Origin: Gammaproteobacteria bacterium
Lineage (GTDB): Bacteria > Pseudomonadota > Gammaproteobacteria > UBA4575
Direction: 5' to 3'
Assembly (NCBI GenBank): GCA_965205685.1
Contig: OZ242174.1
Location: 285,231-349,230 of the forward strand
Length of the DNA: 64,000 nt
A program made the position numbers and the translations under genes. Positions within the stretch are counted from its first letter, which is position 1. Every line of letters starts with the position of its first letter. Of this stretch, positions 10,901-56,185 are shown piece after piece. The notes under the pieces are model-generated. The model saw nothing but the letters and a program-made list of their open reading frames with translations, did no database searches and was not told the DNA's origin.

Positions 10901-12196
10901 ATGAACCCTCCCATCGATGGTGCAGGCCAGCTCATTTTGCGTGCGGGCCGGGACGAAGGCTTTCGACAACGCCTCATCGATAATCCCAGGCAGGCCATCG
11001 AGGAGGCCCTCGGCGTGAAGATCTCCGCAGACCAGCAGGTGTTCGTGCACGAGTCGAATGAAACCGAAGCCCACCTTGTGCTGCCGCCGGTGAGCACGCG
11101 CACGCCAGCCGAACGCGAGGCCGCGAGAACCGGCGTGGCCTCCCTGGAGTTTCTTCGCAAGACGCTGCACGACCCGGCCCCGCCGATGCGCACTCCCGCA
11201 CCGGCCCGGGCAGTGGACCCCGGGGCGGGCGCCGAGGACCTGGCGTCGGCCGCGCGCAACAGTATCGGTCGTGGCCTCGAATTCCTGCAATCCAGCATCA
11301 CCGATGACGGTGCCTGGCACTGCATTCGCTTCAACATTGCCGATCCCGAGGTGCCCCGGCATTTCGAGCGGCCTGCATTCGTGACGGCATTTTGCGTACT
11401 GGCCCTGCAAGGCTGCGGAGATGTGCGCGCGAAGGCCCTGTACGAGACGAGCCGGGCGTACCTGATGGACACCATGGAATATCCCGGCATGTGGCGCTAC
11501 TACCGCCACCTGCCCCAGGATCTGGACAGCACGACCCTGTGCTCGCTGATCCTTGGTTCGCATCCGTGGATCGCGCTCGGGCGAAACGTGGCAAAGATCC
11601 TGTCGAACCGCGATGCACAGGGCCGTTTCCTGACTTGGGTGCTGGGCGAGGACGAGCCCGATGTCGTGTCAAAATTTCGCATCGAGGCCGACCCGGTGGT
11701 GAATGCGAACGTCATCGCCTACCTCGGCGATCACCCGCAGACCCGTCCCGCGCAGCGCTGGCTCGAAGAGCTGGTACGCGAGGACCGCGTACAGGGCACC
11801 TCGAAATGGTATCCCGATACGATAGCGATCTACTACGCCATCACGCGCACAATGGTGCGCGCTCGCCCCGCGCTCGAGTCGCTTCGCCCGATCCTGGCAG
11901 ACCGTATCCTCGGTCTTCGCGACCCCGAGGGCGGGTTTGGCAACCTACTGCAAAGCGCCCAGGCAGTCTCGGCGCTCGACAACGTGCAGTGCCTGGGCCG
12001 TATCGACATGAAAGTCGAGCTGGCCCGCCTGCTGGGTGCACAGCACGAGGACGGAAGCTGGCCGGAGCTGCTCGCTTTCGGCGACCAGACGCTCAAGTGG
12101 GGGGTGGTCGGTCAGTTCGGACACGCCTCGGAGCCCGTGACCACGGCCTTCTGCATCGAGGCGCTGGGACGCCTCGCACAAGCGCTGAGCAGCTGA
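10901..12196 (+). CDS. NHLP leader-peptide domain fused to a prenyltransferase/squalene-cyclase-repeat (alpha/alpha-toroid) domain
   Basis: Residues ~18-63 (GFRQRLIDNPRQAIEEALGVKISADQQVFVHESNETEAHLVLPP) are paralogous to the leader of the precursor at 13475..13726. After a Pro/Ala-rich linker there are QW-type repeats (RGLEFLQSSITDDGAWH, DAQGRF, DPEGGFGN, HEDGSWP). Confidence 0.7.
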   Translation: MNPPIDGAGQLILRAGRDEGFRQRLIDNPRQAIEEALGVKISADQQVFVHESNETEAHLVLPPVSTRTPAEREAARTGVASLEFLRKTLHDPAPPMRTPAPARAVDPGAGAEDLASAARNSIGRGLEFLQSSITDDGAWHCIRFNIADPEVPRHFERPAFVTAFCVLALQGCGDVRAKALYETSRAYLMDTMEYPGMWRYYRHLPQDLDSTTLCSLILGSHPWIALGRNVAKILSNRDAQGRFLTWVLGEDEPDVVSKFRIEADPVVNANVIAYLGDHPQTRPAQRWLEELVREDRVQGTSKWYPDTIAIYYAITRTMVRARPALESLRPILADRILGLRDPEGGFGNLLQSAQAVSALDNVQCLGRIDMKVELARLLGAQHEDGSWPELLAFGDQTLKWGVVGQFGHASEPVTTAFCIEALGRLAQALSS

Positions 12197-12207: not shown

Positions 12208-13347
12208 ATGGCATCTGCCCCAGAGGACATCAGCATCGACGAGGCCATCCTGCTGACCCAGGAGCGCCTAGACGATGAAGGCGACAGCATGGCCGACTTG
12301 CTCGAGCACTTTCGCGAGCGAATCTCGCCGGTGCTGATCGGCGACTCCCAATGGACCCGAGTACTCGATTGCGTCGCCAAGCTTCCGATCACCATGGCGG
12401 CCCTTCCCTTCGGTTTCGAACTGCCCCTGCATGAGACAGCACCGCTGGCGGATTTTGGCGCCTCGCTGGCTGCCGGCACGCGATCGGCCGAACCATTCCT
12501 TGCCCGTGCGAAGGCGGACCCCGGCGATGCACTGGCGTGCGCGATCGCCCGCCTGTTCCGCCAGATGGAGGCCGAGCCCTCGCCGCTTCGCGAGGTGGTC
12601 GGGCGAAAGCTCATGCTCGAATATGACATCGGTTCGGCCGGGCCGGGCAAGCCGCCCTTCCCTGGCATGTTTTTGCGCCCCGGCGAGCGCCCGATACTCG
12701 GGGCCTGCGAGCAGCACGACGAGGTTGCCCTGGTGGCGGATGCGCTGGTGTCCTGTCTTGGCTGGTCGATGGATGAGGCCCATCGCGGGCACATTGAACG
12801 CAGCTACCGGATGCAGCCCGAGGATACGCGCATGGACTCGTTCGGTGTGTTTCCCTCACGCTCGCAAGCCATACGCCTGGCGGTCATGGGCTTTCGCTCG
12901 AGCGCACAGCTTGGCGAGTATCTTGAGAACACCGGCTGGCCCGGGGACATTGCAGCCGTCGATGCGGTGCTCAAGCGATTCGCTGAGCGCGCGGACATCG
13001 TTCGCACCGGCATCAATATCGACGTCCAGGAGCAGGGCCTGGGTCCGACGCTGGGCCTGACGCTGATCGTCAAGCAGCGCTATACGAAAGATTCCCGCTA
13101 CTGGCTCGATGGCCTGACCGACTGGGAGCCGTTCCTTGAGGCGCTGGGCCAGGAGGCGCTGGTGGACCGGGACAAGCTGGCCGAGCTGGCCACGTGGGTG
13201 AGCAAGCCGACGACGCTGTTTGCGAAGTCCGGGCGCTTTGTGCTGCTGCGTGGCATCCACCACATCAAGCTGGTGATCTCCGAGAATGAACTGCGAAAAG
13301 CCAAGGCCTACGTGTTCATGGTGCTGTCCGGTGCGGTCAGTTTCTGA
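12208..13347 (+). CDS. hypothetical protein, co-transcribed with the leader-toroid fusion
   Basis: Clean 379-aa ORF, 11 nt after the upstream stop. No recognisable family. Confidence 0.45.
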   Translation: MASAPEDISIDEAILLTQERLDDEGDSMADLLEHFRERISPVLIGDSQWTRVLDCVAKLPITMAALPFGFELPLHETAPLADFGASLAAGTRSAEPFLARAKADPGDALACAIARLFRQMEAEPSPLREVVGRKLMLEYDIGSAGPGKPPFPGMFLRPGERPILGACEQHDEVALVADALVSCLGWSMDEAHRGHIERSYRMQPEDTRMDSFGVFPSRSQAIRLAVMGFRSSAQLGEYLENTGWPGDIAAVDAVLKRFAERADIVRTGINIDVQEQGLGPTLGLTLIVKQRYTKDSRYWLDGLTDWEPFLEALGQEALVDRDKLAELATWVSKPTTLFAKSGRFVLLRGIHHIKLVISENELRKAKAYVFMVLSGAVSF

Positions 13348-13474: not shown

Positions 13475-13726
13475 TTACCAGCAGCAGCAAAGCCCGGCGG
13501 AAATCGCTTCGAGCTGCTCTTCGCTGATGTTCGGGTCCGGTGGCAGGGCAAGATGCACCGTCTGCATGTCGCTCTCATGGACCACAACGTTCATCGACTC
13601 GGGCATGGTAATGCCCAACTCTGCGCTGATGGTAGATTTCGGGTCATCGAGAAGCTGTTGCCTGAATTCTGTGTCCAGGGCAGACTTCTCAACAATCTGC
13701 TTAAGCATGTCATCGCCGCTTCTCAT
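13475..13726 (-). CDS. NHLP-family RiPP precursor peptide, predicted core LCCCW
   Basis: Leader motif FRQQLLDDPKSTISAELGITMPESMNVVVHESDMQTVHLALPPDP. A double-glycine-type site QLEAISAG (L-7, I-4, AG-2/-1) is followed by the C-terminal LCCCW. AAGGAGG lies 6 nt before the ATG. Confidence 0.75.
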   Translation of the reverse strand: MRSGDDMLKQIVEKSALDTEFRQQLLDDPKSTISAELGITMPESMNVVVHESDMQTVHLALPPDPNISEEQLEAISAGLCCCW

Positions 13727-14439: not shown

Positions 14440-16773
14440 TCAGGGTGAGGCCGCGGAGGACTTTCCGGGCATTCGGTCCACCAGCATCAACAGCGCCGGC
14501 AAGAGGGTCAGGTCGGCCACCAGCGCAAAGCCGATGATCAACGCGGTCAGCACGCCCACCTGCGCGGTGGGCACGAACGGCGAGAACACGAAGATCAGGA
14601 AGCCCGCGACCAGCACGAGCGTGGTGGTGAGCAGCGCGCGCCCAGCCGTATCGAAGGCATAATGAATGGCCTGCTCGGGCGCCTGGCCGTATTCGCGGCG
14701 CGCCCTCTGGTACTTGCTTAGAAAATGCACCGTGTCGTCGACGACGATGCCGACGGTCATGGCGACCACGACCGAGAGCGAAAGCCCCACCTGCCCGACC
14801 GTCAACCCCCAGACCCCGAAGCCCAGCGCCGCCGGCACCAGGTTGGGCACGATGCTGATCAGGCCCAGGCGAATCGACTGCAGGGCGATCAGCAGGATGG
14901 CGGAAATTGCCACCAGCACCAGCACGGTGCCAATCAGCATGGCGCGGATGTTGCGCTGTCCGATATAGGCGAACAGGGCCGCCGGCCCGGTGCTGTTGAT
15001 CTCGGTAATGTCCGATGCGTTCTCGGCCAGCCAGGCGTTGGCGTGCGAATTCAGCTCCAGCACCTCCCGCGAGGACAGCGTCTCGGCCGAGACCGAGACG
15101 CGCGTCGCCGACCTCGAGCGGTCGATCTGGTTGTTCATGTCCAGGCCCTGCGGCAGCGACAGCTCGTACAGCAGCAGGTACTGCGCCGCGAGCTCCTGGC
15201 TTTCCGGGAGCCGGTAGGCCGCGGGATCATCGCCATGCATGCTCATGTTGAGTTGCTGGAAGGTGTCTGTGATGACCGCGACGTGGCGCACCGGGGGCTG
15301 TTCACGGTACCACTCGGCAAACCGGGCGATCTCGGTCAGGAAATCCGGGTGGGTGGCCCCGCCTTCCTCGGGAGCGTGCAGCGAGTACTCCAGCAGGGTG
15401 TTGCCGCTCAGGTGCTCGTCCATGAAATCGGTGTCCTGGCGAAACTCCGTGCCCTCGTCGAAAAAGTGCACCAGCACGTCGCTGAGCTCGTTGCGGGGAA
15501 TGGCCGTGAGCATGACCGGAACGATCACCAGCCAGGTGACGAACAGCGCAGTCCTGTAGCGCAGCACGGTGTTGGCGAGGCGCTCGATGGTGACCGCACC
15601 CAGCTTTCGCTCTGGGCGCGCACGAAACGGCAACAGCGAGATCAGGGCCGGCAGGAAGGTCACCGAGAGCGTGAAGGAGGCGACGATGCCGATGGCGATG
15701 AAGTTGCCGAGATGACGGTAGGGCGGCACCTCGGAGAAATTCATGCTCAAAAACCCGAGCGCGGTGGTCAGGCTCGCCAGAAACACCGGGTGCAGGTTGT
15801 ATCTGAGCGACTCGACGATGGCCTCATTCTTGGAATCGCCCGCGCGAAGCCGCTGCTGCAGGGCCACCAGCAGGTGCACGCAGTTGGCCACGACGATCAT
15901 CAGCACGATGGTCGGAGCCGGCGAGATGGGCGGCGAGAACGGCAGGCCAAGCCACACGCCACCGCCAAGGGATACGAGGATGGAAAAGACGATCACCAGG
16001 CCGGTCGCGGCCACACCCGTCCAGCTGCGGACGAGCAGGCCGAGAATCACGGCCATGAGCACGAGGCTGGCCGGCAGGAAAATCTTCTGGCTGTCGACCG
16101 AGGCCTCGACAAAGGTCTGGCTGACCATGACCGTGCCGACGATGCGAAGGTCAATGCCCGGGAAGCGCTGCTCGCCCTCGCCAGCCACCTTGCGGGCGTA
16201 CCCGGTCACTTCTGCCACGGCCTCGAGCAGCCCCTCCTCCGGCGGCTCCAGGGTGACGTTGACGACACTGACATCGCCGCCGCGCCCGAGGATGCTGCCG
16301 GCGATCCTGGGGTCGGACAGCGCAATGGCCCGGATCTGCTTGCGAACCTCGGCATCGTCCAGTGTTTGCGGGTCGATGAGGTCGCGCACGTACAGGTCAT
16401 CGCCGTCGGCGGTGGTGTACTGGAAGTTGGCGAGCGAGTCCACGCGTCGCGAATAGGGCGTTCGCCAGGCGGCCTCGGTCAGCCAGACGGTGGCCGAAAG
16501 CGCGTTTTGCGAGGTGGCGTCACCGTCGTCGGGGACGATCAGGAACGCGAGGTTCTCGTTCTTGCCGTAGGTTTTCTCAAGCGCCTCCAGATCCAGCAGC
16601 TGCGGGTTGTCTCCATCGAAGAAGATGCGGTAGTTGGCGGAGAACTCAAATCGCGCGATGCCGCTTGCAGCGAGGGCCACCAGCACCAGCGAGGCGACAA
16701 TGATTGGCCAGCGCCAGGCGATCACCCACTCGCCAAAGCGCATCGCAAACGGTGGATGTCCGGGTGTATTCAC
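14440..16773 (-). CDS. RND-superfamily exporter (COG1033 / MMPL/HpnN-like)
   Basis: 777 aa with twelve predicted TM segments in two blocks separated by large periplasmic loops. The N-terminus MRFGEWVIAWRWPIIVASLVLVALAASG is typical of this family. Confidence 0.85.
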   Translation of the reverse strand: MNTPGHPPFAMRFGEWVIAWRWPIIVASLVLVALAASGIARFEFSANYRIFFDGDNPQLLDLEALEKTYGKNENLAFLIVPDDGDATSQNALSATVWLTEAAWRTPYSRRVDSLANFQYTTADGDDLYVRDLIDPQTLDDAEVRKQIRAIALSDPRIAGSILGRGGDVSVVNVTLEPPEEGLLEAVAEVTGYARKVAGEGEQRFPGIDLRIVGTVMVSQTFVEASVDSQKIFLPASLVLMAVILGLLVRSWTGVAATGLVIVFSILVSLGGGVWLGLPFSPPISPAPTIVLMIVVANCVHLLVALQQRLRAGDSKNEAIVESLRYNLHPVFLASLTTALGFLSMNFSEVPPYRHLGNFIAIGIVASFTLSVTFLPALISLLPFRARPERKLGAVTIERLANTVLRYRTALFVTWLVIVPVMLTAIPRNELSDVLVHFFDEGTEFRQDTDFMDEHLSGNTLLEYSLHAPEEGGATHPDFLTEIARFAEWYREQPPVRHVAVITDTFQQLNMSMHGDDPAAYRLPESQELAAQYLLLYELSLPQGLDMNNQIDRSRSATRVSVSAETLSSREVLELNSHANAWLAENASDITEINSTGPAALFAYIGQRNIRAMLIGTVLVLVAISAILLIALQSIRLGLISIVPNLVPAALGFGVWGLTVGQVGLSLSVVVAMTVGIVVDDTVHFLSKYQRARREYGQAPEQAIHYAFDTAGRALLTTTLVLVAGFLIFVFSPFVPTAQVGVLTALIIGFALVADLTLLPALLMLVDRMPGKSSAASP

Positions 16774-16784: not shown

Positions 16785-19184
16785 TCAGGCGATGACCGCC
16801 ACGGGGTTGAGGTCAGCCTCGGCCAGCGGTGCCGTGCGCCTGCCCACCTGCACCGGCACCTCGTACAGGCGCCCCGGGGCAAAGCGCTCCCAGAAGTGGC
16901 GCATGCCCGGCACGATGACCCGTGCCACCGGCATGCCGATATCGGGCCGGGTCTGCTCGAGCACCAGCATCTCCAGGCCCTTGTCGGCCACCAGGGTACA
17001 GCAGCGCTCGACGTCCTCCTTGATGTCGGCAGTCTCGGGCAGCGGGTAGTCCGTCCGTCCCCGCGCGGGTACCCCGGGGTCCGGAGCCAGGTAGGGATGA
17101 TCCTCGAGCCTCGCGTTCTGCCACCAGGCGAGGCACATCGGGTCATCGACCCCGTATCCGGTGTGCCCGGCCTGCGGGCGCGGAACCCAGGTCAGGCACT
17201 GGTTCATCTCGCACACTGCCCGCAAGGCGGCGATGCGCGCATCGGTGTGTGCTCCGGCCCCGTACAGGATGTCTTCGGACTGCGCATCGGTCCTGCGCGA
17301 CAGGGCCACGAAGGCCGGGATGGGAAAATCGGCGCTGACGTCGAGCAGCCACATGTCGCGCTCGAGCGTTCGGTAGTAGTCCGGTGCACCGGCCAGGTAG
17401 TCGTCGTTGAAACTCTCAAGCTCGACGCGCGGACAGCGCAGGCGGTTGTACCACCAGATAGAGAAGGCATCGCGCTCCACCAGCTCGAGAAAGCCCTGCA
17501 GGATGGCCTCCTCCAGCGTGTTGCCGGCCGCGCACCCGTTCGAGTCCGCCCAAAGATCCCGCGGGCCGCGCTGCTCGGGGGTCATGCCGTAGAGTATCGA
17601 GGTCGGCAGGTAGCAGTGGCGCGCGCGGGTGAGCGAGTACACCGGCGACCAGTCGACCTCGGCTTCCACATTAAAGCGCGGGGGAATGATGTTGTAGGGG
17701 TGCGCGCGGGCATTAATATCATCGGCGTGCTCGAGCTGGTGGTCGCTGAACAGCTGCACCTCGTTCGGATGGATGGCCTGCCCGTCTTCGCCCTGGCCTT
17801 CGAACTCCGAATAGCGCTTGCGGGTGCGGATCTCATCGCCGTGGAAGGCGCCCGAATAGCGCTCGATGGCCTCGCAAAGCGCGCTCGCCTGCGACTGCTC
17901 GGGCGTGCTTCCCTTGCCCGCGCTCTTGCTTCGAAGGCTGCGCCGCAGCGAACTCAGGCTCTTGATGCGAAGCGCCAGGTTGGAGCCTGCCCAGTGCACG
18001 TGCAGCCAGGAGTCGCTGACCTCCGTGGTGCGTTCCAGCCAGCTGACCACGCCGCTGACCGGGCTGATCAGGTGGCGGTAGCGGGCCAGGGTCTGCTCCG
18101 GATGGACCGCGCGAAGCCCGCCGCTGTTTTGCACATCCTTCGGGCTGGGCTTGAGCTGCACTGCCCGTGGCGGGCGATCCGCCCGGTAGTGCGTTTCCTC
18201 GCCACACACGGGACACTGCGGGCGCCTGCACACGGGATGGCTCTGCGTTTTCAGAGGACCAAGTTCGAGCGTGATGGCATTCGAGTGGATCGGGGCACGC
18301 TCGGTGAAGACCAGCCACTTGGCGATCTCGGCCGCGATCAGTGCGTGCACGGCGCCCAGCAGCCCGGGCTCGGCGGCGAAGGCACGAAAAGCGCCTGCCT
18401 CGCCCTCGCGGTTGCGCACGAAGGTGTGGACCTCTTGGTGGTTTTGCAGGCGGTAGGCGAGACAGTTCCAGCACGGCCCGCCCGTGCCCGGTCGAAACAC
18501 CGGACCGATGAGCGGGCTGGTCCCCTTGGGACGGGCCAGCATCCAGGGGCGGCCCGAGGCCAGGTGCCCGCGGTTGAGGCCGGCGTGCTGCGCATCGAGA
18601 TAGTCCTCGCAGACCACCACGTCAAGTGCCTCACCCTGTGGGCTCACGGCCACCCCGAGCGACTCCAGCGCACCCGTGAGGGCACATTCCTCGTCCCCGG
18701 CCACGCTCACACCCGTGCTCTCCAGGCGCTCCTCGACGAACCGCGGGGAGGCCCCGAGCGAGGACCACCAGGCTGCGCGCTCGCGCGCCATGCGGTATTC
18801 ACCTGAAACGATGTAGCCTCGCGAGGTGAGGGATTTGAGCCAGGCGTTGGGGTCTTGGCCAACCCACTGTGCCCCCAGGGTAGCGGTGATCTCGTCGTGG
18901 CTGTTCGTGCCATCCAGCAGCGCCAGCAGCGGTCCGTAGAATGGACCGTGCAGCAGCGTGTTGAAGGATTCGGAGACGAGCAGCACGCGCTCCTCATCGA
19001 GGATCCGGTACTCGAGATGCGGGGCCAGCACGGGCATTTCGATAACGCCGGTATCGGCCGCACTCACCTTGTGCAACAGGCCTTGCGGGGCAGTCGCATT
19101 CGGCCCTGTGCCCGCCGCGTGCGGGCTGTGTGGTCCTGGCATACCCGAATCCGCAACCATGCTCCGTAGCATAAAGGGGATCAC
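16785..19184 (-). CDS. TOMM-type cyclodehydratase: E1-like (ThiF-like) docking domain fused to YcaO
   Basis: The N-terminal domain has a CxxC…CxxC zinc tetrad (CWNC…CPVC). The C-terminal YcaO region includes SGGLRAVHPEQTLARY and ALCEAIERYSG. This architecture co-occurs with NHLP/Nif11 precursors. Confidence 0.85.
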   Translation of the reverse strand: MIPFMLRSMVADSGMPGPHSPHAAGTGPNATAPQGLLHKVSAADTGVIEMPVLAPHLEYRILDEERVLLVSESFNTLLHGPFYGPLLALLDGTNSHDEITATLGAQWVGQDPNAWLKSLTSRGYIVSGEYRMARERAAWWSSLGASPRFVEERLESTGVSVAGDEECALTGALESLGVAVSPQGEALDVVVCEDYLDAQHAGLNRGHLASGRPWMLARPKGTSPLIGPVFRPGTGGPCWNCLAYRLQNHQEVHTFVRNREGEAGAFRAFAAEPGLLGAVHALIAAEIAKWLVFTERAPIHSNAITLELGPLKTQSHPVCRRPQCPVCGEETHYRADRPPRAVQLKPSPKDVQNSGGLRAVHPEQTLARYRHLISPVSGVVSWLERTTEVSDSWLHVHWAGSNLALRIKSLSSLRRSLRSKSAGKGSTPEQSQASALCEAIERYSGAFHGDEIRTRKRYSEFEGQGEDGQAIHPNEVQLFSDHQLEHADDINARAHPYNIIPPRFNVEAEVDWSPVYSLTRARHCYLPTSILYGMTPEQRGPRDLWADSNGCAAGNTLEEAILQGFLELVERDAFSIWWYNRLRCPRVELESFNDDYLAGAPDYYRTLERDMWLLDVSADFPIPAFVALSRRTDAQSEDILYGAGAHTDARIAALRAVCEMNQCLTWVPRPQAGHTGYGVDDPMCLAWWQNARLEDHPYLAPDPGVPARGRTDYPLPETADIKEDVERCCTLVADKGLEMLVLEQTRPDIGMPVARVIVPGMRHFWERFAPGRLYEVPVQVGRRTAPLAEADLNPVAVIA

Positions 19185-19294
19185 AGGCGCTGACCAGCGT
19201 GAAATGCGCCAGTCCGGCGCCTTGACATGCCAATCCCGATGCGGACAATGAATTTCAATGATGAATACATTCCAGCGCTTGGCTGGAGGTTGTT

Positions 19295-21763
19295 ATGGCG
19301 ATAGGTAATGTAGAGCCGGGTGGTGTGGGTGCCGGTGCCGGCCCTCGAGGCGGCATCATCGAGCCGACGATCTGGGCGGCCCTTCCGTATTTCATCTCGC
19401 TGATGGTCTTCCCCTTGATGCTGCTGGCCGCCACCTTCGGGGGCTGGTGGCTGCTTGGTCCGGCCTTCTATTTCATGCTGGCGGGCTGGTTCGACAAGCT
19501 GTTCGGCACGGAAACGCGCAACATGGACCCGGAGGCCACCCTGGAGAGCCAGCTGGTCCTGTACAAGCTGGCAATCTGGGCCTGGGCACTTCTGTGGCTG
19601 GTGACGTTCGTCTATGCGCTCTGGCAGATCCTGGTTGTGGGCCAGCTGGCGCTGTGGGAGAGCCTGCTGCTGGCCGTCCTGCTGGCCCTGGTGGGACAGG
19701 CGGTGTTCATCGCCGGACATGAGCTGATCCATCAACGTGCCCTGTGGGAGCGTCGCCTGGGCGAGCTTTTGCTGGCGTCCGTGTCGTACCCGATCTACGC
19801 CACCGAACACATCTACGTGCACCATGCCCTGGTGTGCACGCCGGCCGATCACGGCACGGCGATCAAGGGTCAGAGCTTCTGGCAGTACCTGCCGAAGGAT
19901 CTTGCCGCAAGCCTGCGCGAGTCCTGGCGTTTTGAGTGCAGCCGGCTGTCGAGGCGGCACCTGCCGGTGTGGCATTACAGCAACCCGTTCTGGCGCTATG
20001 GCCTGACGATGGCCGGATGGTATCTGCTGGTCTACTGGATGGGCGGGATCTGGGCGGTGCTGGTGTTTGCGCTGTTTTGCTCGGGCATCATCCTGTCCAT
20101 GAAAATCATCAACTACGTGCAGCACTACGGGTTGCAGCGCATCCGCTTGCCCAATGGCCGCTTCGAGCGTGTCGCGCCCCGCCATTCCTGGAGTGCGGCC
20201 AGCAAGTTCACCAACTGGATCTACTACAACATGCAGCGCCATGCCGACCATCACATCGAGGCCACCCGCTACTATCCGCTGCTGCAGCATCACGGCGAGG
20301 AGGAATCCCCGCAGCTGCCCAGGAACTATTCCGAGATGGCCGGGCTCGCCGTGGCCCCCAAACGCTGGTTCGAGGTCATGGATCCGATGGTGGACCGCTG
20401 GCGCGCGCGCTTCTATCCGCATATCAGTGACTGGAGCGCCTACGACAGTGCGGCCTTCGTAGCCCGCCCGGAATCGATCGAGCGCATCCAGGAAATCCTC
20501 GGAGCCTCGCCGCGCCTGACCGAGTGGATCAACGCCGCCCCGGAACTGCTGGACTGCCTCGAGGAGCGCGAGTTCACCGACCTGGACTTGCCCGACGGCT
20601 TCGGCCCGGACACGGGCTTTGAGACGATCGCGCGCAAGGGGCTTGCGCGGTTGTACTGGACGCATGAATTCGGCGTGGTAGAGATGACCGAGCAGCTGTC
20701 CGAGCTGCCGGCACAGGGCGAGCGCGAGAAAGTCGAGACCGTGCGCAACTGGCTCAACGACAAGGTCTTCCAGGTGAGCGTGCACGTGATGCGCGGCAAC
20801 CTCTCGCCGGTGGAGGCAGGACCCGTGTTCACGAACCTTGCACAGGCCTCGATCTCCGTGCTGCTGGCCGCCGTCGAGGACGAGTACCGCTCCACTTCGA
20901 GGCGTGCACGACGTTCCCGCGGCGCACTGGCCGCAGTCCTGCTCGGCGATGCGGCGAGCGGCGAAGCCGTTCCCGGTTGCGAACTCGAGGTTGCGTTCGT
21001 GTACCAGGGCACTCCGCCCGAGTACTACCGGGCCCTGGGGACACGCCTTTACAATGCACTGCGCGCGTTCTCCCATGAGAACCTGCTGTTCATCGAGGTC
21101 CCGCGCACCCGGGAAGCCCCGCGGGTACGCTCCCTGGAGGAATTTTCCGAGCACTACAGGACTGAGGGCACGGCCAGCGAGCTGCACGCGCTGATGCAGG
21201 CGCGTTGCGTGTTTGCACCGGTCGACTCCAGCCTGGACGTTCAGTTCGACAAGGTACGCTGCGAGGTGCTGACGCACGGGGCTGCTCGTCTTGAACTGCT
21301 GGACAAGCTCTCGGAGGCGTGTGGCGATGCCCCCCAGCCGGGGCTTGCCTCCATCGAGGACATGCACGGCGGCCAGGATGAACTCGAACGTGCGGCGCGC
21401 TGGGTGCAGTTGACCCATGCCGAGGATGCCCTGACCCTGCTGGTACCCGATACCGCCTCCGTGTTCGAAACGGCCGGCGGCTGCGGGCTGATGGATGAAC
21501 AAGCGGCCACGCGCCTGGCCGAGGCCACCCGCCTGTGGAGAAATATCCAAGGCGCCCTGCAGATGGTGGTGGGCTATCCCCTGGACGGGGAGGCGCTGGA
21601 CCCCAAGGTCAAGGCGGCCATTGCGCGTGCCTGCGCACAGGATGATTTTGATGAACTGGCCGAGCTCATTCGCGAGACCGCATCGCGCGCCGGCCTCGAT
21701 CTTGGTGCCCTGGAGGGTTTGCGGGAGAGTGATTCGGACCCCTTGCAGGATGCGCCCGGATAG
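19295..21763 (+). CDS. AlkB-like integral-membrane di-iron hydroxylase/desaturase fused to a GlnE/GlnD-like nucleotidyltransferase-type C-terminal domain
   Basis: His boxes HELIH, EHIYVHH, NYVQHYGL and RHADHH match the AlkB family. The C-terminal ~470 aa has a GlnE-like helical region and a degenerate NTase motif (GDAASGEAVPGCELEVAFVY). Confidence 0.65.
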   Translation: MAIGNVEPGGVGAGAGPRGGIIEPTIWAALPYFISLMVFPLMLLAATFGGWWLLGPAFYFMLAGWFDKLFGTETRNMDPEATLESQLVLYKLAIWAWALLWLVTFVYALWQILVVGQLALWESLLLAVLLALVGQAVFIAGHELIHQRALWERRLGELLLASVSYPIYATEHIYVHHALVCTPADHGTAIKGQSFWQYLPKDLAASLRESWRFECSRLSRRHLPVWHYSNPFWRYGLTMAGWYLLVYWMGGIWAVLVFALFCSGIILSMKIINYVQHYGLQRIRLPNGRFERVAPRHSWSAASKFTNWIYYNMQRHADHHIEATRYYPLLQHHGEEESPQLPRNYSEMAGLAVAPKRWFEVMDPMVDRWRARFYPHISDWSAYDSAAFVARPESIERIQEILGASPRLTEWINAAPELLDCLEEREFTDLDLPDGFGPDTGFETIARKGLARLYWTHEFGVVEMTEQLSELPAQGEREKVETVRNWLNDKVFQVSVHVMRGNLSPVEAGPVFTNLAQASISVLLAAVEDEYRSTSRRARRSRGALAAVLLGDAASGEAVPGCELEVAFVYQGTPPEYYRALGTRLYNALRAFSHENLLFIEVPRTREAPRVRSLEEFSEHYRTEGTASELHALMQARCVFAPVDSSLDVQFDKVRCEVLTHGAARLELLDKLSEACGDAPQPGLASIEDMHGGQDELERAARWVQLTHAEDALTLLVPDTASVFETAGGCGLMDEQAATRLAEATRLWRNIQGALQMVVGYPLDGEALDPKVKAAIARACAQDDFDELAELIRETASRAGLDLGALEGLRESDSDPLQDAPG

Positions 21764-21877: not shown

Positions 21878-24385
21878 TTGAGAACATACATGATGACGCA
21901 CCCTGTCTTTTGCCAGCCTCGCGTGCCGGGTTCATCCGGCGGTCTTGCGGGCAAGGGAACCCTGCGCCTGGCCGGTCTTGTGCTGGTCATGGCCCTCGGT
22001 GCCTGCGGGGGTGGCGGAGGAGGAGGCTCCAGTTCGGATACCCAGCCGCCTGCAACGCCCCCTCAGGGGGGCTCCGACCCGGTAGAAACCCCGGAGCAGC
22101 AAACCCCGGTCGAGATGGCCGCCCCGGCACCGACCCTGACACCACCATCGCTACCGTCATTACCCCCGGACCCCTCCACGCTGTGTATCCAGACGGTCAA
22201 CAAGGGCTGCCTTGGGCTTGCGGAATTCGACAATGAGGTGAGTGGCCGGATGACGGTCTACGAGAACCAGCGCAACTTCAACAACCAGTGGGGCCTGTCC
22301 AGCATCCGTGCGCAACGCGCCTATGCCCACATGGAGTTGCTCACCGGGCTTCCCATTGACCCGGGCGAGGGGGTGACGATCGGCTTCGTGGACTCCGGCA
22401 TCGATCTATCCCACCAGCTGTTTGCCGGTTCGACCATCAACGAGGTCTTCCTGGGCGGGGCCAGCAACGAAACCGGTACCCGGTTCTCCCATGGCACCGC
22501 GGTGGCCAGCGTGGCGGCGGCTCCGCGAATCGTCACGACCGTCAATGCCAGTCACGGTGTCGCCTGGGGTGCAAACATCGCCATGTTCGCCATTCCGACG
22601 GGCCGGGGCCCGGCGGGCTACAACCCGATTACACTGGCCGGCCTGCAGTCCCGCGACAGCTTCTGGACGACCGTCATCAACGGTGCCCTGAACTGGCGAA
22701 GCGGAACGAGGAGGGTGGATTTCCTGAATCTCAGCGTGGGTTCGGAGGGCATCATCAACAGTTACAGCGAGCGCGAGCTGCGCGCTAATTTCAGCAATGC
22801 CATCGCCGCGATGGCCCAGCGCGGCGCAAGCGAGAAGACCGTGCTGGTATGGGCAGCCGGCAACGGCCACGGGGATTCGTGTCAGGCTGGAGAAGACTAC
22901 TGCCGGAACCTGGCGATCAATGCGGCCTCGGTCGAGGTGCTGCCTGGCCTGATGGCCCGCATCCCGGAGCTTCGCGGACATACGGTCGCCGTGACGGCCA
23001 TCGGTGAGGACGGCCTGATTACCGATTTCTCCAACCGTTGCGGTATCGCCGCGAACTGGTGCCTGGCTGCCCCGGGCGAGGATGTCCTGGCGGCCTATTT
23101 CGGGCCGCACGAGGGCCAGGACGGATTCCGGGGCATCGCGACCGTCGATGGCACCTCGTTTGCCGCCCCCATGGTCTCCGGTGGGCTGGCGGTGATGAAG
23201 CAGTTGTTCAGAAACCAGCTCTCCAACACGGCCTTGCTGTCCAGGCTGCTCGACACTGCCAATGACCGCGGGATCTATGCCAACCGCTTGATATACGGTC
23301 ACGGCCTGATGGACCTCGGCGCTGCTACCTCGCCCGTCGGGCTGCTCGAGGTTCCCCGGCAAACTAGCATCGGCACTCCGGGCGTATTGCTGCAGACCAC
23401 GCAGCTGCAGACTGGACCGGCCTTCGGTGACGGCCTCGTGCAATCACTGCGCGGGCACGAGATGGCTGCCTTCGATGCCCTCGGTGCGCCCTTCTGGTTT
23501 GATCTCGGCAGTTTCGCTACATCAGCCTCTGAACCCTCGGTGAACGTGCAGCTGCGGGACTTCCTGTCCGCCGCCCCCGACAGCCGCACCCCGCTGGGCG
23601 AGGACTTCGATTTCAGCTACGTGCAGGAACTGGTCTCGCCCGGGCTTTCTGCCTCACGCTGGAGGCTTGGCTTGCTGGAGATGCCGGGGGTAGGCCAGGC
23701 CGGTCATTTCGCACGTGCCGAGCCGGCCGTGGCACTGAGCGTGTCGGACCCGTCCGGTTTCTCAGCGAGTGCGTTCACGAGCGAAGGCACGACGGATGAA
23801 GCTCCGGCCACCGGTGCGCTGGTGTCCTGGCAGGCTGCGGGCACTGTAGCCCTGCATGCCGGGTGGCTAGGTGAGTCTGATTCCCTGCTTGGTGCCCGTG
23901 CGGAAGGTGCATTTGGCGAGCTGGGCGCGGATGCCGTCTTTTTCGGGCTGTCGATAGATTCGGAGCTTGCCGGCTGGGCCCTTGGGGCGAGTGCCGAGAT
24001 CGGCCGGGTACGTCCCGCGTCCACGCGGGGCCTGATCACCGGGGTCTCCTCGCTTGCAACCAGCACGTTCGCGGTTCGCGCCACCCGGGAAGTCGGTGAG
24101 GCCGGCACGTTTCGCTTGTCGGTGTCACAGCCGCTTCGCATCGAGGGGGGCCACGCCTCCCTCAAAGTCCCCGTTGGGCGCACCCCTGCGGGCATCGTCC
24201 TGCAACGTTCCATGACTGCCCGCCTGGCGCCGAGCGGTCGCCAGGTGGATGTGGCCGCGCACTGGCGCCAGCCCCTGGTCCTGGGCGAATGGCGCCTTGG
24301 CGCGACCTGGTCGCATGAGCCCGAGCACCGTGAAGAAGCGGAAGCCGAATTCACCTTGCTGAGCGGCTGGCTGTACAGCTTCTGA
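21878..24385 (+). CDS. subtilisin-like (S8) serine protease lipoprotein with C-terminal autotransporter-like beta-barrel (NalP-like)
   Basis: Lipobox LGAC followed by a Gly/Ser linker. Catalytic triad contexts FVDSGID, HGTAVAS, GTSFAAPMVSG. The C-terminus ends …LSGWLYSF. Confidence 0.8.
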   Translation: MRTYMMTHPVFCQPRVPGSSGGLAGKGTLRLAGLVLVMALGACGGGGGGGSSSDTQPPATPPQGGSDPVETPEQQTPVEMAAPAPTLTPPSLPSLPPDPSTLCIQTVNKGCLGLAEFDNEVSGRMTVYENQRNFNNQWGLSSIRAQRAYAHMELLTGLPIDPGEGVTIGFVDSGIDLSHQLFAGSTINEVFLGGASNETGTRFSHGTAVASVAAAPRIVTTVNASHGVAWGANIAMFAIPTGRGPAGYNPITLAGLQSRDSFWTTVINGALNWRSGTRRVDFLNLSVGSEGIINSYSERELRANFSNAIAAMAQRGASEKTVLVWAAGNGHGDSCQAGEDYCRNLAINAASVEVLPGLMARIPELRGHTVAVTAIGEDGLITDFSNRCGIAANWCLAAPGEDVLAAYFGPHEGQDGFRGIATVDGTSFAAPMVSGGLAVMKQLFRNQLSNTALLSRLLDTANDRGIYANRLIYGHGLMDLGAATSPVGLLEVPRQTSIGTPGVLLQTTQLQTGPAFGDGLVQSLRGHEMAAFDALGAPFWFDLGSFATSASEPSVNVQLRDFLSAAPDSRTPLGEDFDFSYVQELVSPGLSASRWRLGLLEMPGVGQAGHFARAEPAVALSVSDPSGFSASAFTSEGTTDEAPATGALVSWQAAGTVALHAGWLGESDSLLGARAEGAFGELGADAVFFGLSIDSELAGWALGASAEIGRVRPASTRGLITGVSSLATSTFAVRATREVGEAGTFRLSVSQPLRIEGGHASLKVPVGRTPAGIVLQRSMTARLAPSGRQVDVAAHWRQPLVLGEWRLGATWSHEPEHREEAEAEFTLLSGWLYSF

Positions 24386-26225: not shown

Positions 26226-29200
26226 TCAGAACTGCATTCTGGACCACAGTCCGATGCCGTAGCCCGAGGCATCCGCGGTGTCGCCGAGACGCCCGCCTTC
26301 GAGGCTCAGGTGCAGCGAGCGCGCAACCTCGAGACTGCCCCCCAGGCGGATGTCCAGGCCGCCTTCGTCGATCAGCGAGATGTCGGCAAACGGCACCCAG
26401 AGCCCTCGCCCGCCGAGTGCCGGCAGGCCGTATTCAAGCTTGGCATTCAAACTCCCGGTCATCTGCGGGCGTACGCCCTGCTCTCCGGTGCCGGCATCCC
26501 ATGCCCAGAGCCTGTCCAGGGAACTAGACGGCAGGCCCCAGCGCGGCGAGAGGCTGAATGCGAGGCCGTGGCGCCCGGGCGTGGGATCGACCCGGACCTC
26601 GCCCATGAGGCCCCACTCGTCGTAATCATCGTCGTGGTCGATCAGAACACGGGCCCTGCCTTCCATGGCGAGGCGCCGATTCGGATCGCTGTAGCGCACC
26701 CCGGTGCCGAGCTCGATGCCGGAGCCGGTGAGCGCGTCGCCGCGGTCATGGCGAAAGCCCACTTCAAGCGAAGGGATCAGCAGCCGGCCGTCGCTTTTCT
26801 CCAGCACGTGGCTGCCCTCCAGTGCCAGGCGCGCGCGCCTGAAGCCGGCATTCAGGGAAGCGATCTCCTCGCCGCCGCGGGCGCGGATCTTCGTGGCATT
26901 GCCCTCGCCCTTGAGGCGCAGGGTGGAGACCCCGGGGGCGTACAGGTCCTGCATCGAAACCAGCCGGGTGCTGAAGCCGAGCGTCGCGCTCATCATCTGG
27001 GTGTCACTGGAATCCCTCCAGTCCTCGGCATCGATGCGCACTTCGCCCTCGCCGTAGCCCACGGTGGACCAGATGTGCATGTGGTTGTCCGGCGAGGACC
27101 AGCTGAGGTACGGGTGCAGGCTGGTCAGCTCGGCATCGTAATCGCCTTGTACGGCATCCTCGCGGTCATCGAAATCAAAGTCGCCGTCCGAGCGCGACAG
27201 CGCAATGCCGGCCAGCAGGTTGGGCCGCAGCCACGCATCGAGCCCCATGTGGGCGTTGGTCAGGTCGCCGTCCCAGATCACCGGGCGGTCGCGCCCGCCG
27301 CCGATGTCACGGTAGTCGCCGCGCACCCACAGCGAGGCCGCCTCCCAGGGTCCGCTGTCGGCACCGAGCGGCAGCACGAAGGATTTTCCGTCCAGCAGGT
27401 ACTTGAGGTCCACGGACTCGCCGGGCTGCAAATGGGGAATGGAGATCAGGATTTCCTCGATCGAGGTCACATCCTCTTCTGCCTCGGGCTCCTGCGTCTT
27501 GCCCACGCCCCCGGGTGCGGCCATCTCCATGCGCCCGGAGATGGCAGACAGCGTGCTCGACATCATGGCCTGGGTGATGCGCGGCAGCAGCTCGTCATTG
27601 ACCCGCGTGCGCGATCCGGTCGGCTCATCGTCGTCACGCACAACCACGGCCGCGGCGCCCGGCTCGCCGATCGTGTAGGTGGTGGCAGCCCGCAGGCGTG
27701 CCGTGACCACACTGTCCGGCTCGTTGCGCCGGTCTGCGACCGTCGGCACCGACAGCAGGGCGAGCATCTTGCCGGCATCGAAGGATACGTGCGTGGGCGG
27801 GTGTCTCCGCAGCATCCTGCCGGACTCGCTCACCGCGACCTCGACCTTCAGGGCGGTCTCTCTTGGCCCGGTTCTTCGCAGCGTGAAGGCCACCTCCGTG
27901 CCCTCGATCACCGGAGAGGGCCCGGCCAGGATCACAACTTCGGGCAGTACCTTGGCCGGCACATCGGTGGGCGCCTCCCCAGGCCCGCCCTGCGGGTTGC
28001 GCGGATTGATCGTGTTGCCGTTGCTCGTGCCGTCATCATCGCGCACGTCGATCGTCGCGGCAGAAGGCGTACCCACGGTGTAGGCGCTGTCCAAGACCAC
28101 CGTCACCGTAATGCGGCTGTCGGGCTCGTCCACGTCGTCTGCCACGGTATCCAGGGTCAGCTGGATCTGGCTGTCACCGATGCCGAACGTTTCCGTGCTC
28201 GTGCCGTCCTGCGCGGTCATCTCTCCGGTCTCCTGCACGCTCACCATCACACCCAGGGCCGCCGTGGTGTCCCCGGTTCGCGAAAGGGTCAGGGTCGCGC
28301 TTTGGCCTTCTGTCAGGCTCGTTCGATCCGAACGGATGGTCACCACCGGGAGCCCCGGGGTCGTGTCGTCGTCCTCGACGATGACCGAGGCGGTGGAAGG
28401 CGATCCAATCGTGTAGGTTCTGGCACCCCCGGGCCGAATCGTCGCCGTGATCGAGCTGTTGTTTTCATCCACATCGTCGTCACTGATCGGCACCTCGAGC
28501 AGGGTCATGGCGTGATTGGCCGGGAAGGTCACGGTCGTTGGGGGTGTGTAGTTCGAATCCACCATGTCTCCGGACTCCTGCACCTGTACATTGATCACCA
28601 GCTCGCCGTCGATCAGCCCGACGCGCTTGAAGGTGAAGGTTGCGGGTCCGTTCGCCTCGCCGATCGGCGTGGGCCCGGCGACCACGCTCACGCTCGGCCA
28701 GTTGTTGTCCTCGACGGTGACCGAGGCCGAGCCCGGGCTGCCAATCGTGTAGGCGGAGTTCGCGACAAGGGTCGCGGTGACCAGGCTGTCAAGCTCATCG
28801 AGCTCGTCGTCGTCGGTTTGCAGGAAGAGCGGGGCGGTATCATTGCCGGAGGTAAAGGTTACGGTGTGTGACCTCTGCAAGGAGGTCGGGATCATGTCCT
28901 CGCTTTCGGTCACGTGCACGGTGACGGTCAGGCTGGTGGCCGTGTCGCCGGTTCGGGTCAGGGTGAAGTCGGCGGTCTCGCCCTCCTCCACGGTCGAGGC
29001 GTCCGCCGCGATCGTGACTGTCGGCAACTCCACGGTGTTTTCCACGTTTTCTTCCACGCCGTCTGTCTCCGTGCCCTTCGTGTCCGAGCCTTGCTCACTC
29101 ACCAGATTCAGTACCGGGGTGGTGATGACGTTCAGCCCGCGCGGAGTATCGCAGCCCTGCGAATAGTCGGCCACGCCGTCCGAGTCCCAGGAAAAAGTCA

Positions 29201-29684
29201 CTACATCGCCGGGTGCGATCGGCACCAGCATGTCGAATCCGAAGCTGGACGACACATATGCCGTTTCCGAATCGACGTCGGCGCGCGTGCCGTCGGCCTT
29301 GTAGCGGTCGTATCCGTAGCCGCCGCTGGGGCAGTAGGTGTTGCCATTGACGTGCACCTTGATGATGAAGCGGAATGGGGACCCGTGGTAGCCCAGCAGA
29401 TCACTGAACTCCGAATTGCGCAGGCAAGCATTGATCCGGGCCCGGGGGCTCCGCCCCTCCTGGAAGTTCGCGTTGTCGACCACCGCCCAGCTGTCCGTAT
29501 CGGAATTCGGCAACGCGTCCCATTCGGTATGCAGCCTGGTGTTCTTGCACAGGTCGCCGGCCTGGGCTTGCGGGCCCAGAAAGACCAGGACCGCCAGCAC
29601 GAACGCCAGGGACTGCAGGAATCGGGCGAGGGGGTAAGGGCAGGCGATCAAGTCGGCGCCTTGGTCCGGACCGTGCCGGTGCAT
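26226..29684 (-). CDS. autotransporter with Calx-beta repeat passenger
   Basis: At least five ~100-aa repeats fit the Calx-beta pattern (…EGETADFTLTRTGDT…LTVTVHV…). The C-terminal beta-barrel ends …GIGLWSRMQF. Confidence 0.65.
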   Translation of the reverse strand: MHRHGPDQGADLIACPYPLARFLQSLAFVLAVLVFLGPQAQAGDLCKNTRLHTEWDALPNSDTDSWAVVDNANFQEGRSPRARINACLRNSEFSDLLGYHGSPFRFIIKVHVNGNTYCPSGGYGYDRYKADGTRADVDSETAYVSSSFGFDMLVPIAPGDVVTFSWDSDGVADYSQGCDTPRGLNVITTPVLNLVSEQGSDTKGTETDGVEENVENTVELPTVTIAADASTVEEGETADFTLTRTGDTATSLTVTVHVTESEDMIPTSLQRSHTVTFTSGNDTAPLFLQTDDDELDELDSLVTATLVANSAYTIGSPGSASVTVEDNNWPSVSVVAGPTPIGEANGPATFTFKRVGLIDGELVINVQVQESGDMVDSNYTPPTTVTFPANHAMTLLEVPISDDDVDENNSSITATIRPGGARTYTIGSPSTASVIVEDDDTTPGLPVVTIRSDRTSLTEGQSATLTLSRTGDTTAALGVMVSVQETGEMTAQDGTSTETFGIGDSQIQLTLDTVADDVDEPDSRITVTVVLDSAYTVGTPSAATIDVRDDDGTSNGNTINPRNPQGGPGEAPTDVPAKVLPEVVILAGPSPVIEGTEVAFTLRRTGPRETALKVEVAVSESGRMLRRHPPTHVSFDAGKMLALLSVPTVADRRNEPDSVVTARLRAATTYTIGEPGAAAVVVRDDDEPTGSRTRVNDELLPRITQAMMSSTLSAISGRMEMAAPGGVGKTQEPEAEEDVTSIEEILISIPHLQPGESVDLKYLLDGKSFVLPLGADSGPWEAASLWVRGDYRDIGGGRDRPVIWDGDLTNAHMGLDAWLRPNLLAGIALSRSDGDFDFDDREDAVQGDYDAELTSLHPYLSWSSPDNHMHIWSTVGYGEGEVRIDAEDWRDSSDTQMMSATLGFSTRLVSMQDLYAPGVSTLRLKGEGNATKIRARGGEEIASLNAGFRRARLALEGSHVLEKSDGRLLIPSLEVGFRHDRGDALTGSGIELGTGVRYSDPNRRLAMEGRARVLIDHDDDYDEWGLMGEVRVDPTPGRHGLAFSLSPRWGLPSSSLDRLWAWDAGTGEQGVRPQMTGSLNAKLEYGLPALGGRGLWVPFADISLIDEGGLDIRLGGSLEVARSLHLSLEGGRLGDTADASGYGIGLWSRMQF

Positions 29685-46087: not shown

Positions 46088-46684
46088 ATGACCTACACCA
46101 CTGAACATATTACCCAGACACTCAAGCGCGCCCGAGAGGCTCAAGCGCTCAGCCAGCGCACACTCGGCACCCAAGCCGGTGTGCCCCAGGGACATATCTC
46201 GAAAATCGAAAACGGGGCCGTGGACCTGCGTATATCGAGTCTGGTCGAGCTTGCACGCGTGCTGGGTTTGGAGGTCATGCTCGTGCCCCGCAAAAGCGTT
46301 TCAGCCGTGCAGGCCTTGGTGCGAAACACAGGGGGACTTGGCGAGGGACCTGCGCCCAAGGCACCTAGGGAATTAGGTCGATTGCAAGGCAGGATCGCCA
46401 ACCTTGTGCAAAAGCACCCCACTGTGCATGAGGTGGCGCAGCTGCACCGCCAGGCAAACGAATTGGCACATGTTCGTATCCCGCAGGACCACCTTGCAGT
46501 GATCAGGGCGGTGGAGGATCTGGTAGAGGAGTATTCCAGTGACAGCATGCGCACGGTTTCCCTGGTTGAGGCGTTTGAACGGATTCGCCGCCTGCGCAAT
46601 AAACTGGCCCATGGAGTTGAAGCTCAGCAGGATGATCCGCAAGTGCGCCCGGCCTATCGTTTGGACGAGGATGAGGATGGCTGA
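46088..46684 (+). CDS. hipB: HipB-like XRE-family HTH antitoxin with long C-terminal extension
   Basis: HTH LSQRTLGTQAGVPQGHISKIENG. Its stop overlaps the hipA start by 8 nt. Confidence 0.7.
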   Translation: MTYTTEHITQTLKRAREAQALSQRTLGTQAGVPQGHISKIENGAVDLRISSLVELARVLGLEVMLVPRKSVSAVQALVRNTGGLGEGPAPKAPRELGRLQGRIANLVQKHPTVHEVAQLHRQANELAHVRIPQDHLAVIRAVEDLVEEYSSDSMRTVSLVEAFERIRRLRNKLAHGVEAQQDDPQVRPAYRLDEDEDG

Positions 46685-55676: not shown

Positions 55677-56185
55677 TCATCAAATGACAAACAACCCAGC
55701 AACGCTTCCAGTTCCAGAACATTGTGCCTGCGAATCTCCAGAACATCCTTAGGAAAATTTGTCTTGTAGTTGTCTTGAGTCGTCAGTGTGGTTGGAAGCA
55801 AATTGTTCACCCGTGACTTGCACTCTGCACATGTGCTTGGCACCGGCTCATCGAGAATTTTTAGCAACAGTCCTTCGATGCAGGGTGTCGAGCCTATGAT
55901 CCGAATCTTTTTTGATTGGGCACGCTTCTGTATCGCTGCCGATATTTCCAGGTCGGTATCCAGCAAAGCTATAACCCGGTTGTATGCCGCATTCCTGCAT
56001 TGTTTGATGGCGTAGTCCACTACATGAGCCGGCCCTTTACCGTGCGCATTGCGAATCTTGGCACTCACTCCGCACCCGCGACCGACATAGAGAGATTTGA
56101 CGTGACAGAGAAATGCGCACTCGGTTTTACCCTCCCCTACCAGCAGGACGGTATGACGGGCAGCGCGCCATTCGCGTGAAGGCAT
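55673..56185 (-). CDS. RloB-like protein (partner of abortive-infection AAA ATPases)
   Basis: 170 aa with a VLLVGEGKTE start typical of the RloB/DUF4276-like TOPRIM-type family. 11 nt after the ATPase stop. Confidence 0.6.
   Translation of the reverse strand: MPSREWRAARHTVLLVGEGKTECAFLCHVKSLYVGRGCGVSAKIRNAHGKGPAHVVDYAIKQCRNAAYNRVIALLDTDLEISAAIQKRAQSKKIRIIGSTPCIEGLLLKILDEPVPSTCAECKSRVNNLLPTTLTTQDNYKTNFPKDVLEIRRHNVLELEALLGCLSFDD

Follow-up and report, generated by a model that had tools for sequence, protein, structure and literature searches.

The AlkB–GlnE fusion gene

The window analysed here, a 64-kb stretch of contig OZ242174.1 from a gammaproteobacterial genome (assembly GCA_965205685.1, lineage UBA4575), contains an open reading frame (ORF) at positions 19295–21763 whose product joins an AlkB-type di-iron membrane oxygenase to a single GlnE-like nucleotidyltransferase (NTase) module. 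Positions are those of the window throughout, and residue numbers are those of the 822-amino-acid (aa) fusion. The coordinates agree exactly with those of a preliminary description of this DNA, and the AlkB-like and GlnE-like architecture proposed there is upheld by a Pfam domain search, by profile matches to structures in the PDB and by Foldseek comparisons. Pfam places PF00487 (FA_desaturase) at aa 120–348 (E 1.2e-24) and PF03710 (GlnE) at aa 464–652 (E 2.1e-9). The AlphaFold2 model, which was built on an alignment of 32 family members that also supplied the profile for the PDB comparisons, reaches a predicted local distance difference test score (pLDDT) of 82.4 and a predicted TM score (pTM) of 0.74. 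A GGAGG ribosome-binding site lies at 19284–19288 (plus strand), 6 nt before the ATG, and the gene is indeed divergent from a YcaO gene, the two being separated by a 110-bp intergenic gap that also holds the promoter match. The features of the fusion gene are as follows:

19222..19249, plus strand: sigma70-like promoter, TTGACA-16-GACAAT (consensus match only)
19295..21763, plus strand: AlkB–GlnE fusion gene (ORF with ATG start, 822 aa; Pfam, PDB matches, AlphaFold2 model)
19355..20404, plus strand: AlkB-type di-iron membrane oxygenase domain, aa ~21–370 (PDB match, TM score, His conservation, hydropathy)
20432..21730, plus strand: module like the adenylylation (AT) half of GlnE, aa ~380–812, with helical lead-in, NTase fold and C-terminal helical domain (3K7D, NCBIfam, Foldseek, module-only search)
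20939..21001, plus strand: degenerate NTase motif LLGDAASGEAVPGCELEVAFV (alignment to 3K7D; the GlnE equivalent is GKLGGxELxxxSDLDLIFL)

The AlkB-type half

The N-terminal half of the fusion carries the four histidine boxes of the AlkB family, HELIH (aa 142–146), EHIYVHH (aa 171–177), NYVQHYGL (aa 273–280) and QRHADHH (aa 314–320), all of them as quoted in the preliminary description, where the last was given as RHADHH. The nine AlkB histidines within these boxes (H142, H146, H172, H176, H177, H277, H316, H319 and H320) are retained in 81 of 81 aligned sequences, comprising the window sequence and 80 species-representative loci. Hydrophobic hairpin regions span aa 21–56, 85–147 and 239–276, and these three regions are compatible with the six transmembrane helices previously suggested for the N-terminus. 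The resemblance to AlkB is far above chance, since the family profile matches solved structures of AlkB as well as of GlnE, with E values of 1.7e-69 for the AlkB structure 8F6T (aa 53–369) and 1.9e-54 for 8SBB. The Foldseek comparison of the fusion model with AlkB structures yields TM scores of 0.71–0.79 at 29–32% identity. By sequence and fold, this half belongs to the AlkB hydroxylase clade rather than to a desaturase clade, and because the nine histidines are invariant it is almost certainly active as an O2-dependent di-iron oxygenase.

Two further positions distinguish the family. At aa 276, where the NYxEHYG box of classical AlkB has a glutamate, all 81 family members have a glutamine (NYxQHYG), a family-specific change that adjoins a metal-binding histidine. 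The residue equivalent to W55 of Pseudomonas putida AlkB is phenylalanine or tyrosine in 80 of the 81 sequences. In the P. putida enzyme W55 limits chain length, and the replacement is a weak hint of a short substrate pocket.

The GlnE-like half

The C-terminal module resembles the AT half of GlnE, as the preliminary description had in part anticipated, but it comprises about 430 aa (380–812) rather than the 470 aa given there. The family profile matches the GlnE structure 3K7D over aa 463–749 (E 6e-19) and 1V4A with an E value of 1e-4, and the fusion model superimposes on 1V4A with a TM score of 0.70, with 3K7D and the GlnE-like AMPylase DrrA also being matched. The NCBIfam model of GlnE (NF010706) aligns aa ~470–797 to its positions 634–972 of 986, which correspond to the C-terminal AT half, with a score of 72 bits against a cutoff of 724.

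The catalytic motif is weakened, although its spacing is not the G-x9-ExE initially reported: in the window it reads G551-x11-E563-L-E565, which departs from the polymerase-beta-type G-x11-D-x-D. Across the 81 sequences the first catalytic-acid position (563) is acidic in 49 and the second (565) in 65, the replacements including A, G, R, P, K and H. Because these acids are not conserved, while the AlkB histidines are, the module is most likely a pseudo-enzyme that keeps the fold and perhaps ligand binding, even if residual NTase activity may persist in some family members. An NTase that is still active, with the peptide or a partner enzyme as the target of AMPylation or adenylation during tailoring, would fit the retention of the fold and of several GlnE motifs. 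It would also fit the E563-L-E565 of the window, which could in principle bind metal, and the fact that both GlnE and the structural match DrrA AMPylate proteins. We nevertheless consider it very improbable, given that the first acid is non-acidic in 32 of 81 sequences and the second in 16, that the G-G/S turn is A-S in the fusion, that the score falls at 72 bits, and that the same decay recurs in fusions to RND pumps. The AMP-dependent activation originally suggested for the gene thus finds no support, given the drift of the catalytic acids, set against histidines that do not vary at all, and the presence of the decayed module on AcrB-type RND (resistance-nodulation-division) pumps outside any RiPP (ribosomally made, post-translationally modified peptide) cluster.

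The 626 representatives recovered by searching with the module on its own comprise AlkB fusions, then RND-pump fusions, then the AT half of genuine GlnE. The GlnE-derived module follows an AcrB-type pump in proteins such as P0163 (1521 aa), P0161, P0165 and P0180, and at locus L097 (2380–6945) such a fusion adjoins a membrane fusion protein (MFP) gene and the dcw cell-division cluster rather than lying in a RiPP locus. The pump fusions show an equivalent decay of the catalytic motif (GDPVELMF). Because the module also occurs on RND pumps without RiPP genes, recognition of the leader peptide is weakened as a candidate function, and docking or sensing as a general task on membrane proteins is the better fit. 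The module contains no metal-binding cysteines.

The sensing role could also be more specific, in that the module gates membrane proteins, both the oxygenase and the RND pumps, in response to nucleotide, glutamine or a PII-type signal. GlnE is regulated by glutamine and PII, and such gating would echo the regulation of its AT half, to which the module is nearest, including the conserved lead-in REFTDLxLPD...ARRGL. The fusion of the module to two unrelated classes of membrane protein, and the retention of ligand-site-like residues while the catalytic acids drift, point in the same direction; however, no PII gene is present among the conserved neighbours, and we regard gating of this kind as rather unlikely. 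It competes with other proposals solely over what the C-terminal half does, and it does not conflict with the explanation that we prefer for the AlkB half.

The surrounding srp cluster

The genes around the fusion identify the locus, on the evidence of its sequence, as the published srp (sponge-derived RiPP proteusin) cluster, because it encodes a precursor ending in LCCCW and an SrpC-like YcaO protein; this cluster type was not recognised in the preliminary description. The precursor gene, of 252 bp and with an LCCCW core, corresponds to the published srp description (PMC10286304). The YcaO neighbour corresponds to SrpC, the two being equated by family match and context. The genes of the cluster, in addition to the fusion, are:

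5694..7904, plus strand: C39-peptidase ABC exporter (PCAT; ABC/PCAT cluster in 40 loci)
7904..10846, plus strand: second ABC transporter (ABC/PCAT cluster in 40 loci)
10901..12196, plus strand: 431-aa protein with an NHLP-leader-like N-terminus and an alpha/alpha-toroid (terpene-cyclase-like) domain (TIGR03793 E 1e-11; SQHop_cyclase_C weak; PDB 8PAJ E 2.7e-6)
12208..13347, plus strand: 379-aa "hypothetical" protein with a predicted ABBA aromatic-prenyltransferase fold (predicted structure, Foldseek)
13475..13726, minus strand: NHLP/proteusin precursor (SrpE-like), 83 aa, NISEEQLEAISAG followed by the LCCCW core (translation, ending AISAGLCCCW)
14440..16773, minus strand: MMPL/HAE3-type RND transporter (HpnN-like; family matches; kept in 36–40 related loci)
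16785..19184, minus strand: fused leader-binding/YcaO cyclodehydratase (SrpC-like; PF02624 E 8e-94; TIGR03604, TIGR03882)

A LolA-like protein is also encoded within the cluster. PDB entry 8PAJ, which the 431-aa toroid protein matches, is a cyclase, and the resemblance is that of a class II terpene cyclase or of an alpha/alpha toroid; this combination of a leader-like domain with an enzyme is kept in a subset of loci, where it always stands next to the Trp-type ABBA protein. Another frequent neighbour of the fusion is a 296-aa S-adenosylmethionine (SAM)-dependent methyltransferase, found in 31 of the loci L005–L084 (for example L046, 12500–13390) and sometimes located between the fusion and YcaO; the cluster of the window is without it.

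According to the published accounts, srp clusters encode an LCCCW core in a precursor gene of 252 bp and are spread over many sponge-symbiont phyla. SrpC converts the three core cysteines to thiazolines and SrpI brominates the C-terminal tryptophan, the published work being concerned with SrpE, SrpC and the brominase SrpI (PMC10286304, PMC10858898, bioRxiv 10.1101/2023.06.09.544420). The same accounts describe the clusters as ubiquitous in sponge species, rank their precursor genes with the most strongly transcribed RiPP genes of sponge microbiomes, and report a co-located halogenase in only about a third of srp-type clusters. A motif scan for the halogenase signature WxWxIP found none in a credible open frame of the window, nor any in the related loci, which were covered to 10 kb from the fusion (L005–L084) or from the YcaO match (L085–L096). 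The srp clusters were first discovered through their brominase, yet its motif is unseen in the window and in related loci.

A conserved family linked to srp genes

Relatives were gathered by a protein search, by scanning a single genome for each GTDB species and by a metagenome scan starting from YcaO. The protein search returned more than 120 full-length homologues (~800 aa) with 53–91% identity and the same two domains, the named ones being labelled either "fatty acid desaturase" or "hypothetical protein". Relatives are present in at least 445 GTDB species, and the locus counts given here refer to the best 80 of these. The best 80 are metagenome-assembled genomes of Gammaproteobacteria (including Ca. 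Porisulfidus), Alphaproteobacteria, Nitrospirales, Acidobacteriota, Gemmatimonadota (Ca. Palauibacter) and Binatia, many of them bearing sponge or sponge-symbiont names, and fusion identity across phyla is 49–57%. The AlkB–GlnE fusion is thus a conserved family and not a one-off: while it is unusual as an architecture, as had been remarked, it is a large family that resides in an already published type of cluster.

In 55 of the 80 loci, drawn from six bacterial lineages, a full-length YcaO orthologue is encoded no more than 10 kb from the fusion; it shares the strand of the fusion in 50 of the 55, with a median gap of 169 bp. YcaO is the immediate downstream neighbour in 34 loci, and the order fusion, YcaO, 379-aa protein is repeated in 18. 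The divergent arrangement of the window's clade is the rarer form. At least one other srp gene is present in 64 of the 80 loci, and the conserved neighbours comprise YcaO, the ABBA-like protein, the precursor, ABC/PCAT, MMPL, the methyltransferase, HlyD and the toroid protein. Divergence of the fusion tracks that of YcaO from locus to locus (correlation of pairwise identities, r = 0.78, Mantel p = 0.001). The reverse search, from YcaO into metagenomes, found the fusion in four of the five loci with enough flank, a thin sample of the reverse association, as the scan yielded 12 loci of which these five were informative. The fusion is inherited along with the YcaO gene, the precursor, the ABBA-like protein and exporters of lipid type. 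Collectively, this is strong evidence that the fusion belongs to the srp pathway, though not that it is obligatory there, and the earlier placement of the gene in a YcaO/NHLP RiPP locus is strongly backed by the co-occurrence with YcaO and the correlated divergence.

The fusion might instead act on a membrane lipid or hydrocarbon, whether in membrane remodelling for self-protection or export or in alkane oxidation, and merely be co-regulated or co-transferred with the srp genes. The strong similarity to AlkB would fit such a role, as would the phenylalanine or tyrosine at the W55-equivalent position in 80 of 81 sequences, the roughly 20% of loci that carry the fusion away from any srp gene, and the occurrence of the GlnE-like module on RND pumps unrelated to RiPPs. 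By contrast, no rubredoxin was found in any of the loci, and no alcohol or aldehyde dehydrogenase or other alkane-pathway gene is found among the conserved neighbours, a gene context that argues against alkane catabolism as the role of the fusion. Moreover, the tight same-strand arrangement of fusion and YcaO is kept across six bacterial lineages, and the best-matching genomes are largely those of sponge symbionts, as for the srp cluster itself. A role confined to lipids or alkanes therefore appears unlikely to us.

The ABBA-fold neighbour and the core types

The 379-aa protein encoded between the toroid protein and the precursor has no family match by sequence, but its predicted fold (pLDDT 84, pTM 0.85) is an ABBA aromatic-prenyltransferase barrel. 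Foldseek returned 79 matches to this model with E <= 1e-3, and all 50 among the matches listed are ABBA prenyltransferases. The window subtype (64–97% identity) occurs only with LCCCW cores, in 12 of 12 loci, and the other subtype (32–50% identity) occurs only with non-Trp cores, such that the subtype tracks the C-terminal residue of the core, and does so perfectly in the loci compared. These findings suggest that the peptide is prenylated; considered alongside the toroid protein, the MMPL pump and the LolA-like protein, they also point to a lipid-like product.

The fusion, on the other hand, occurs with LCCCW, LCCC, LCCCG[LIV], LSCC[LV] and RCCC cores and with both ABBA subtypes. As it accompanies every core type, it would act on a shared feature, either the thiazolines or an added lipid group, rather than on Trp or Leu. 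The C-terminal Trp and the N-terminal Leu of the core are both ruled out as the common target by the LCCC, RCCC, LSCC[LV] and LCCCG[LIV] cores found beside the fusion. Among the cores that accompany the fusion, nothing but a Cys-Cys pair is invariant.

This invariance speaks for the main chemical rival to hydroxylation, namely that the AlkB half is a desaturase that converts the thiazolines made by SrpC to thiazoles, in place of an FMN (flavin mononucleotide)-dependent azoline dehydrogenase such as McbC, SagB or MprD. The published account describes thiazolines as the product of SrpC alone, and a separate oxidase, MprD, in the related mpr cluster (PMC10286304). PF00487, the Pfam family of the AlkB half, also covers true desaturases, and no dehydrogenase-like gene is present among the conserved neighbours, an absence judged solely from the clustering of those neighbours. 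Set against this, the AlkB half groups with hydroxylases, and to our knowledge no AlkB or fatty-acid desaturase enzyme dehydrogenates a heterocycle. We thus judge desaturation improbable.

Proposed role of the fusion

We propose that the fusion is an oxidative tailoring enzyme dedicated to the srp pathway. To the general reading, an active oxygenase that serves this pathway and carries a non-catalytic GlnE module, we assign a probability of about 0.5. Beyond domain identity and synteny, such statements about function are inferred. By homology to AlkB, the oxygenase would be integral to the cytoplasmic membrane, the active site being located on the inner face, and the GlnE-like module would be cytoplasmic. 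Judging from context, the substrate would be the C-terminal core in its modified, very hydrophobic form ([L/R]-x-C-C..., for example LCCCW), in which YcaO would already have converted the cysteines to thiazolines and which the ABBA enzyme would probably have prenylated before the fusion acts. The reaction could then be an AlkB-like hydroxylation of an aliphatic or allylic C–H bond, in a prenyl methyl group or an aliphatic side chain. Hydroxylation is favoured because the AlkB clade hydroxylates and because many proteins of the cluster handle isoprenoids or lipids, although as the specific chemistry it remains doubtful. The module, which sits at the C-terminus of AlkB where AlkB–rubredoxin fusions bear rubredoxin, would serve as a docking or ligand-sensing unit and may still bind nucleotide.

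Several observations weigh against this proposal. Every characterised AlkB enzyme known to us acts on hydrocarbons and not on peptides. No significant match to rubredoxin was obtained by tblastn in the 64-kb window or in the 96 related loci; with no redox partner encoded nearby, electrons must come from elsewhere, presumably from a housekeeping donor. As regards the non-catalytic module, other GlnE hallmarks are well kept (G551 in 79, R637 in 80, G692 in 80, G693 in 81 and E698 in 74 of 81 sequences), and about half of the 81 sequences keep both catalytic acids. The prenyl-transfer activity of the ABBA protein is itself inferred from a predicted fold. Finally, about 16 of the 80 loci, six of them on truncated contigs, have no srp gene within 10 kb, and the srp-type locus L085 has no fusion within 7 kb, so that the fusion is neither strictly obligatory for, nor strictly linked to, srp genes.

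Other features of the window

Downstream of the fusion, the window encodes a protease that is adjacent to the fusion only in the window's own clade:

21878..24385, plus strand: S8 subtilase bearing a long extension at its C-terminus (immediate downstream neighbour of the fusion; found by tblastn in 6 loci and L091)

Near the subtilase lies a gene for a 1152-aa Calx-beta/autotransporter protein (26226..29684, minus strand). Further along, a low-GC island at ~46500–57500 (0.46–0.55 versus 0.62–0.66 elsewhere) is packed with toxin–antitoxin and defence genes, including HipA, HipA_2, AbiEii/AbiEi, Fic, HEPN/RES and an AAA_21 ATPase. Scanning the window for Rfam families and tRNAs gave no matches.

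Novelty and significance

The srp cluster type, the AlkB family and the GlnE family are known already. What appears to be new is the fusion as a conserved srp-cluster gene, the decay of its NTase half, the presence of the same GlnE module on RND pumps, and the ABBA prenyltransferase-like nature of the "hypothetical" neighbour. The covered literature on srp and on proteusin, YcaO and NHLP clusters makes no mention of an AlkB or desaturase gene, a GlnE-like gene or a prenyltransferase; the founding srp paper (Nguyen et al. 2021, JACS 143:10221; PMC8780398) lies outside that coverage and may annotate the gene.

The final product of the srp pathway and its function are still cryptic. If the fusion and the ABBA-like protein are core enzymes of the pathway, the product would surpass the brominated tris-thiazoline peptide investigated to date in both complexity and lipid character, and heterologous reconstitutions that lack them cannot yield the natural compound. 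AlkB chemistry would be extended beyond hydrocarbons, with a membrane di-iron oxygenase joining the RiPP enzyme repertoire, and a pseudo-enzyme module would be defined that derives from GlnE and is appended to membrane proteins. Taken to its full extent, the fusion may represent the first RiPP-tailoring oxygenase of the AlkB family, which together with an ABBA prenyltransferase would generate a prenylated and oxidised thiazoline lipopeptide that is made at the membrane and exported by lipid-type pumps, with the GlnE pseudo-NTase acting as a new control or docking module shared with RND pumps. We put this fuller picture forward tentatively, at somewhat less than even odds.

Comparison with known systems

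The fusion shares with Fontimonas thermophila AlkB (8F6T/8SBB) and Pseudomonas putida GPo1 AlkB the six-TM-type hydrophobic layout and all nine histidines. It is distinct from classical AlkB in having NYxQHYG for NYxEHYG and HELIHQ/R for HELGHK, in bearing a 430-aa GlnE-like C-terminal module, and in residing in a RiPP cluster without a nearby rubredoxin gene rather than in an alk operon. As in the AlkB–rubredoxin fusions (FtAlkB-AlkG, 8F6T), a cytoplasmic domain is appended directly after the AlkB "...WF..MDPLV" helix. In the present case, however, the appended part is an NTase-fold GlnE module that has no Cys4 metal site and so cannot be the electron donor.

Like the AT half of GlnE (3K7D), the module consists of a helical lead-in, an NTase fold and a helical GlnD_UR_UTase-like tail, and it keeps the GGxxD[VI]E and RARxV motifs. 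This contrasts with GlnE itself, where adenylyl-removing (AR) and AT units occur in tandem within a protein of ~950 aa: in the fusion there is a single module, which is attached to a membrane protein, and x[E/x]L[D/E/x] stands where GlnE has its catalytic SDLDL. The FMN-dependent azoline dehydrogenases McbC/SagB and MprD could, hypothetically, be functional analogues of the AlkB half if it oxidises thiazolines; its fold, cofactor and cellular location are unrelated to theirs. Relative to published srp clusters, the window likewise has a 252-bp NHLP precursor gene with an LCCCW core and a YcaO cyclodehydratase, but the motif scan found no halogenase signature in it, and its AlkB–GlnE gene and ABBA prenyltransferase-like protein have no mention in the covered literature on srp.

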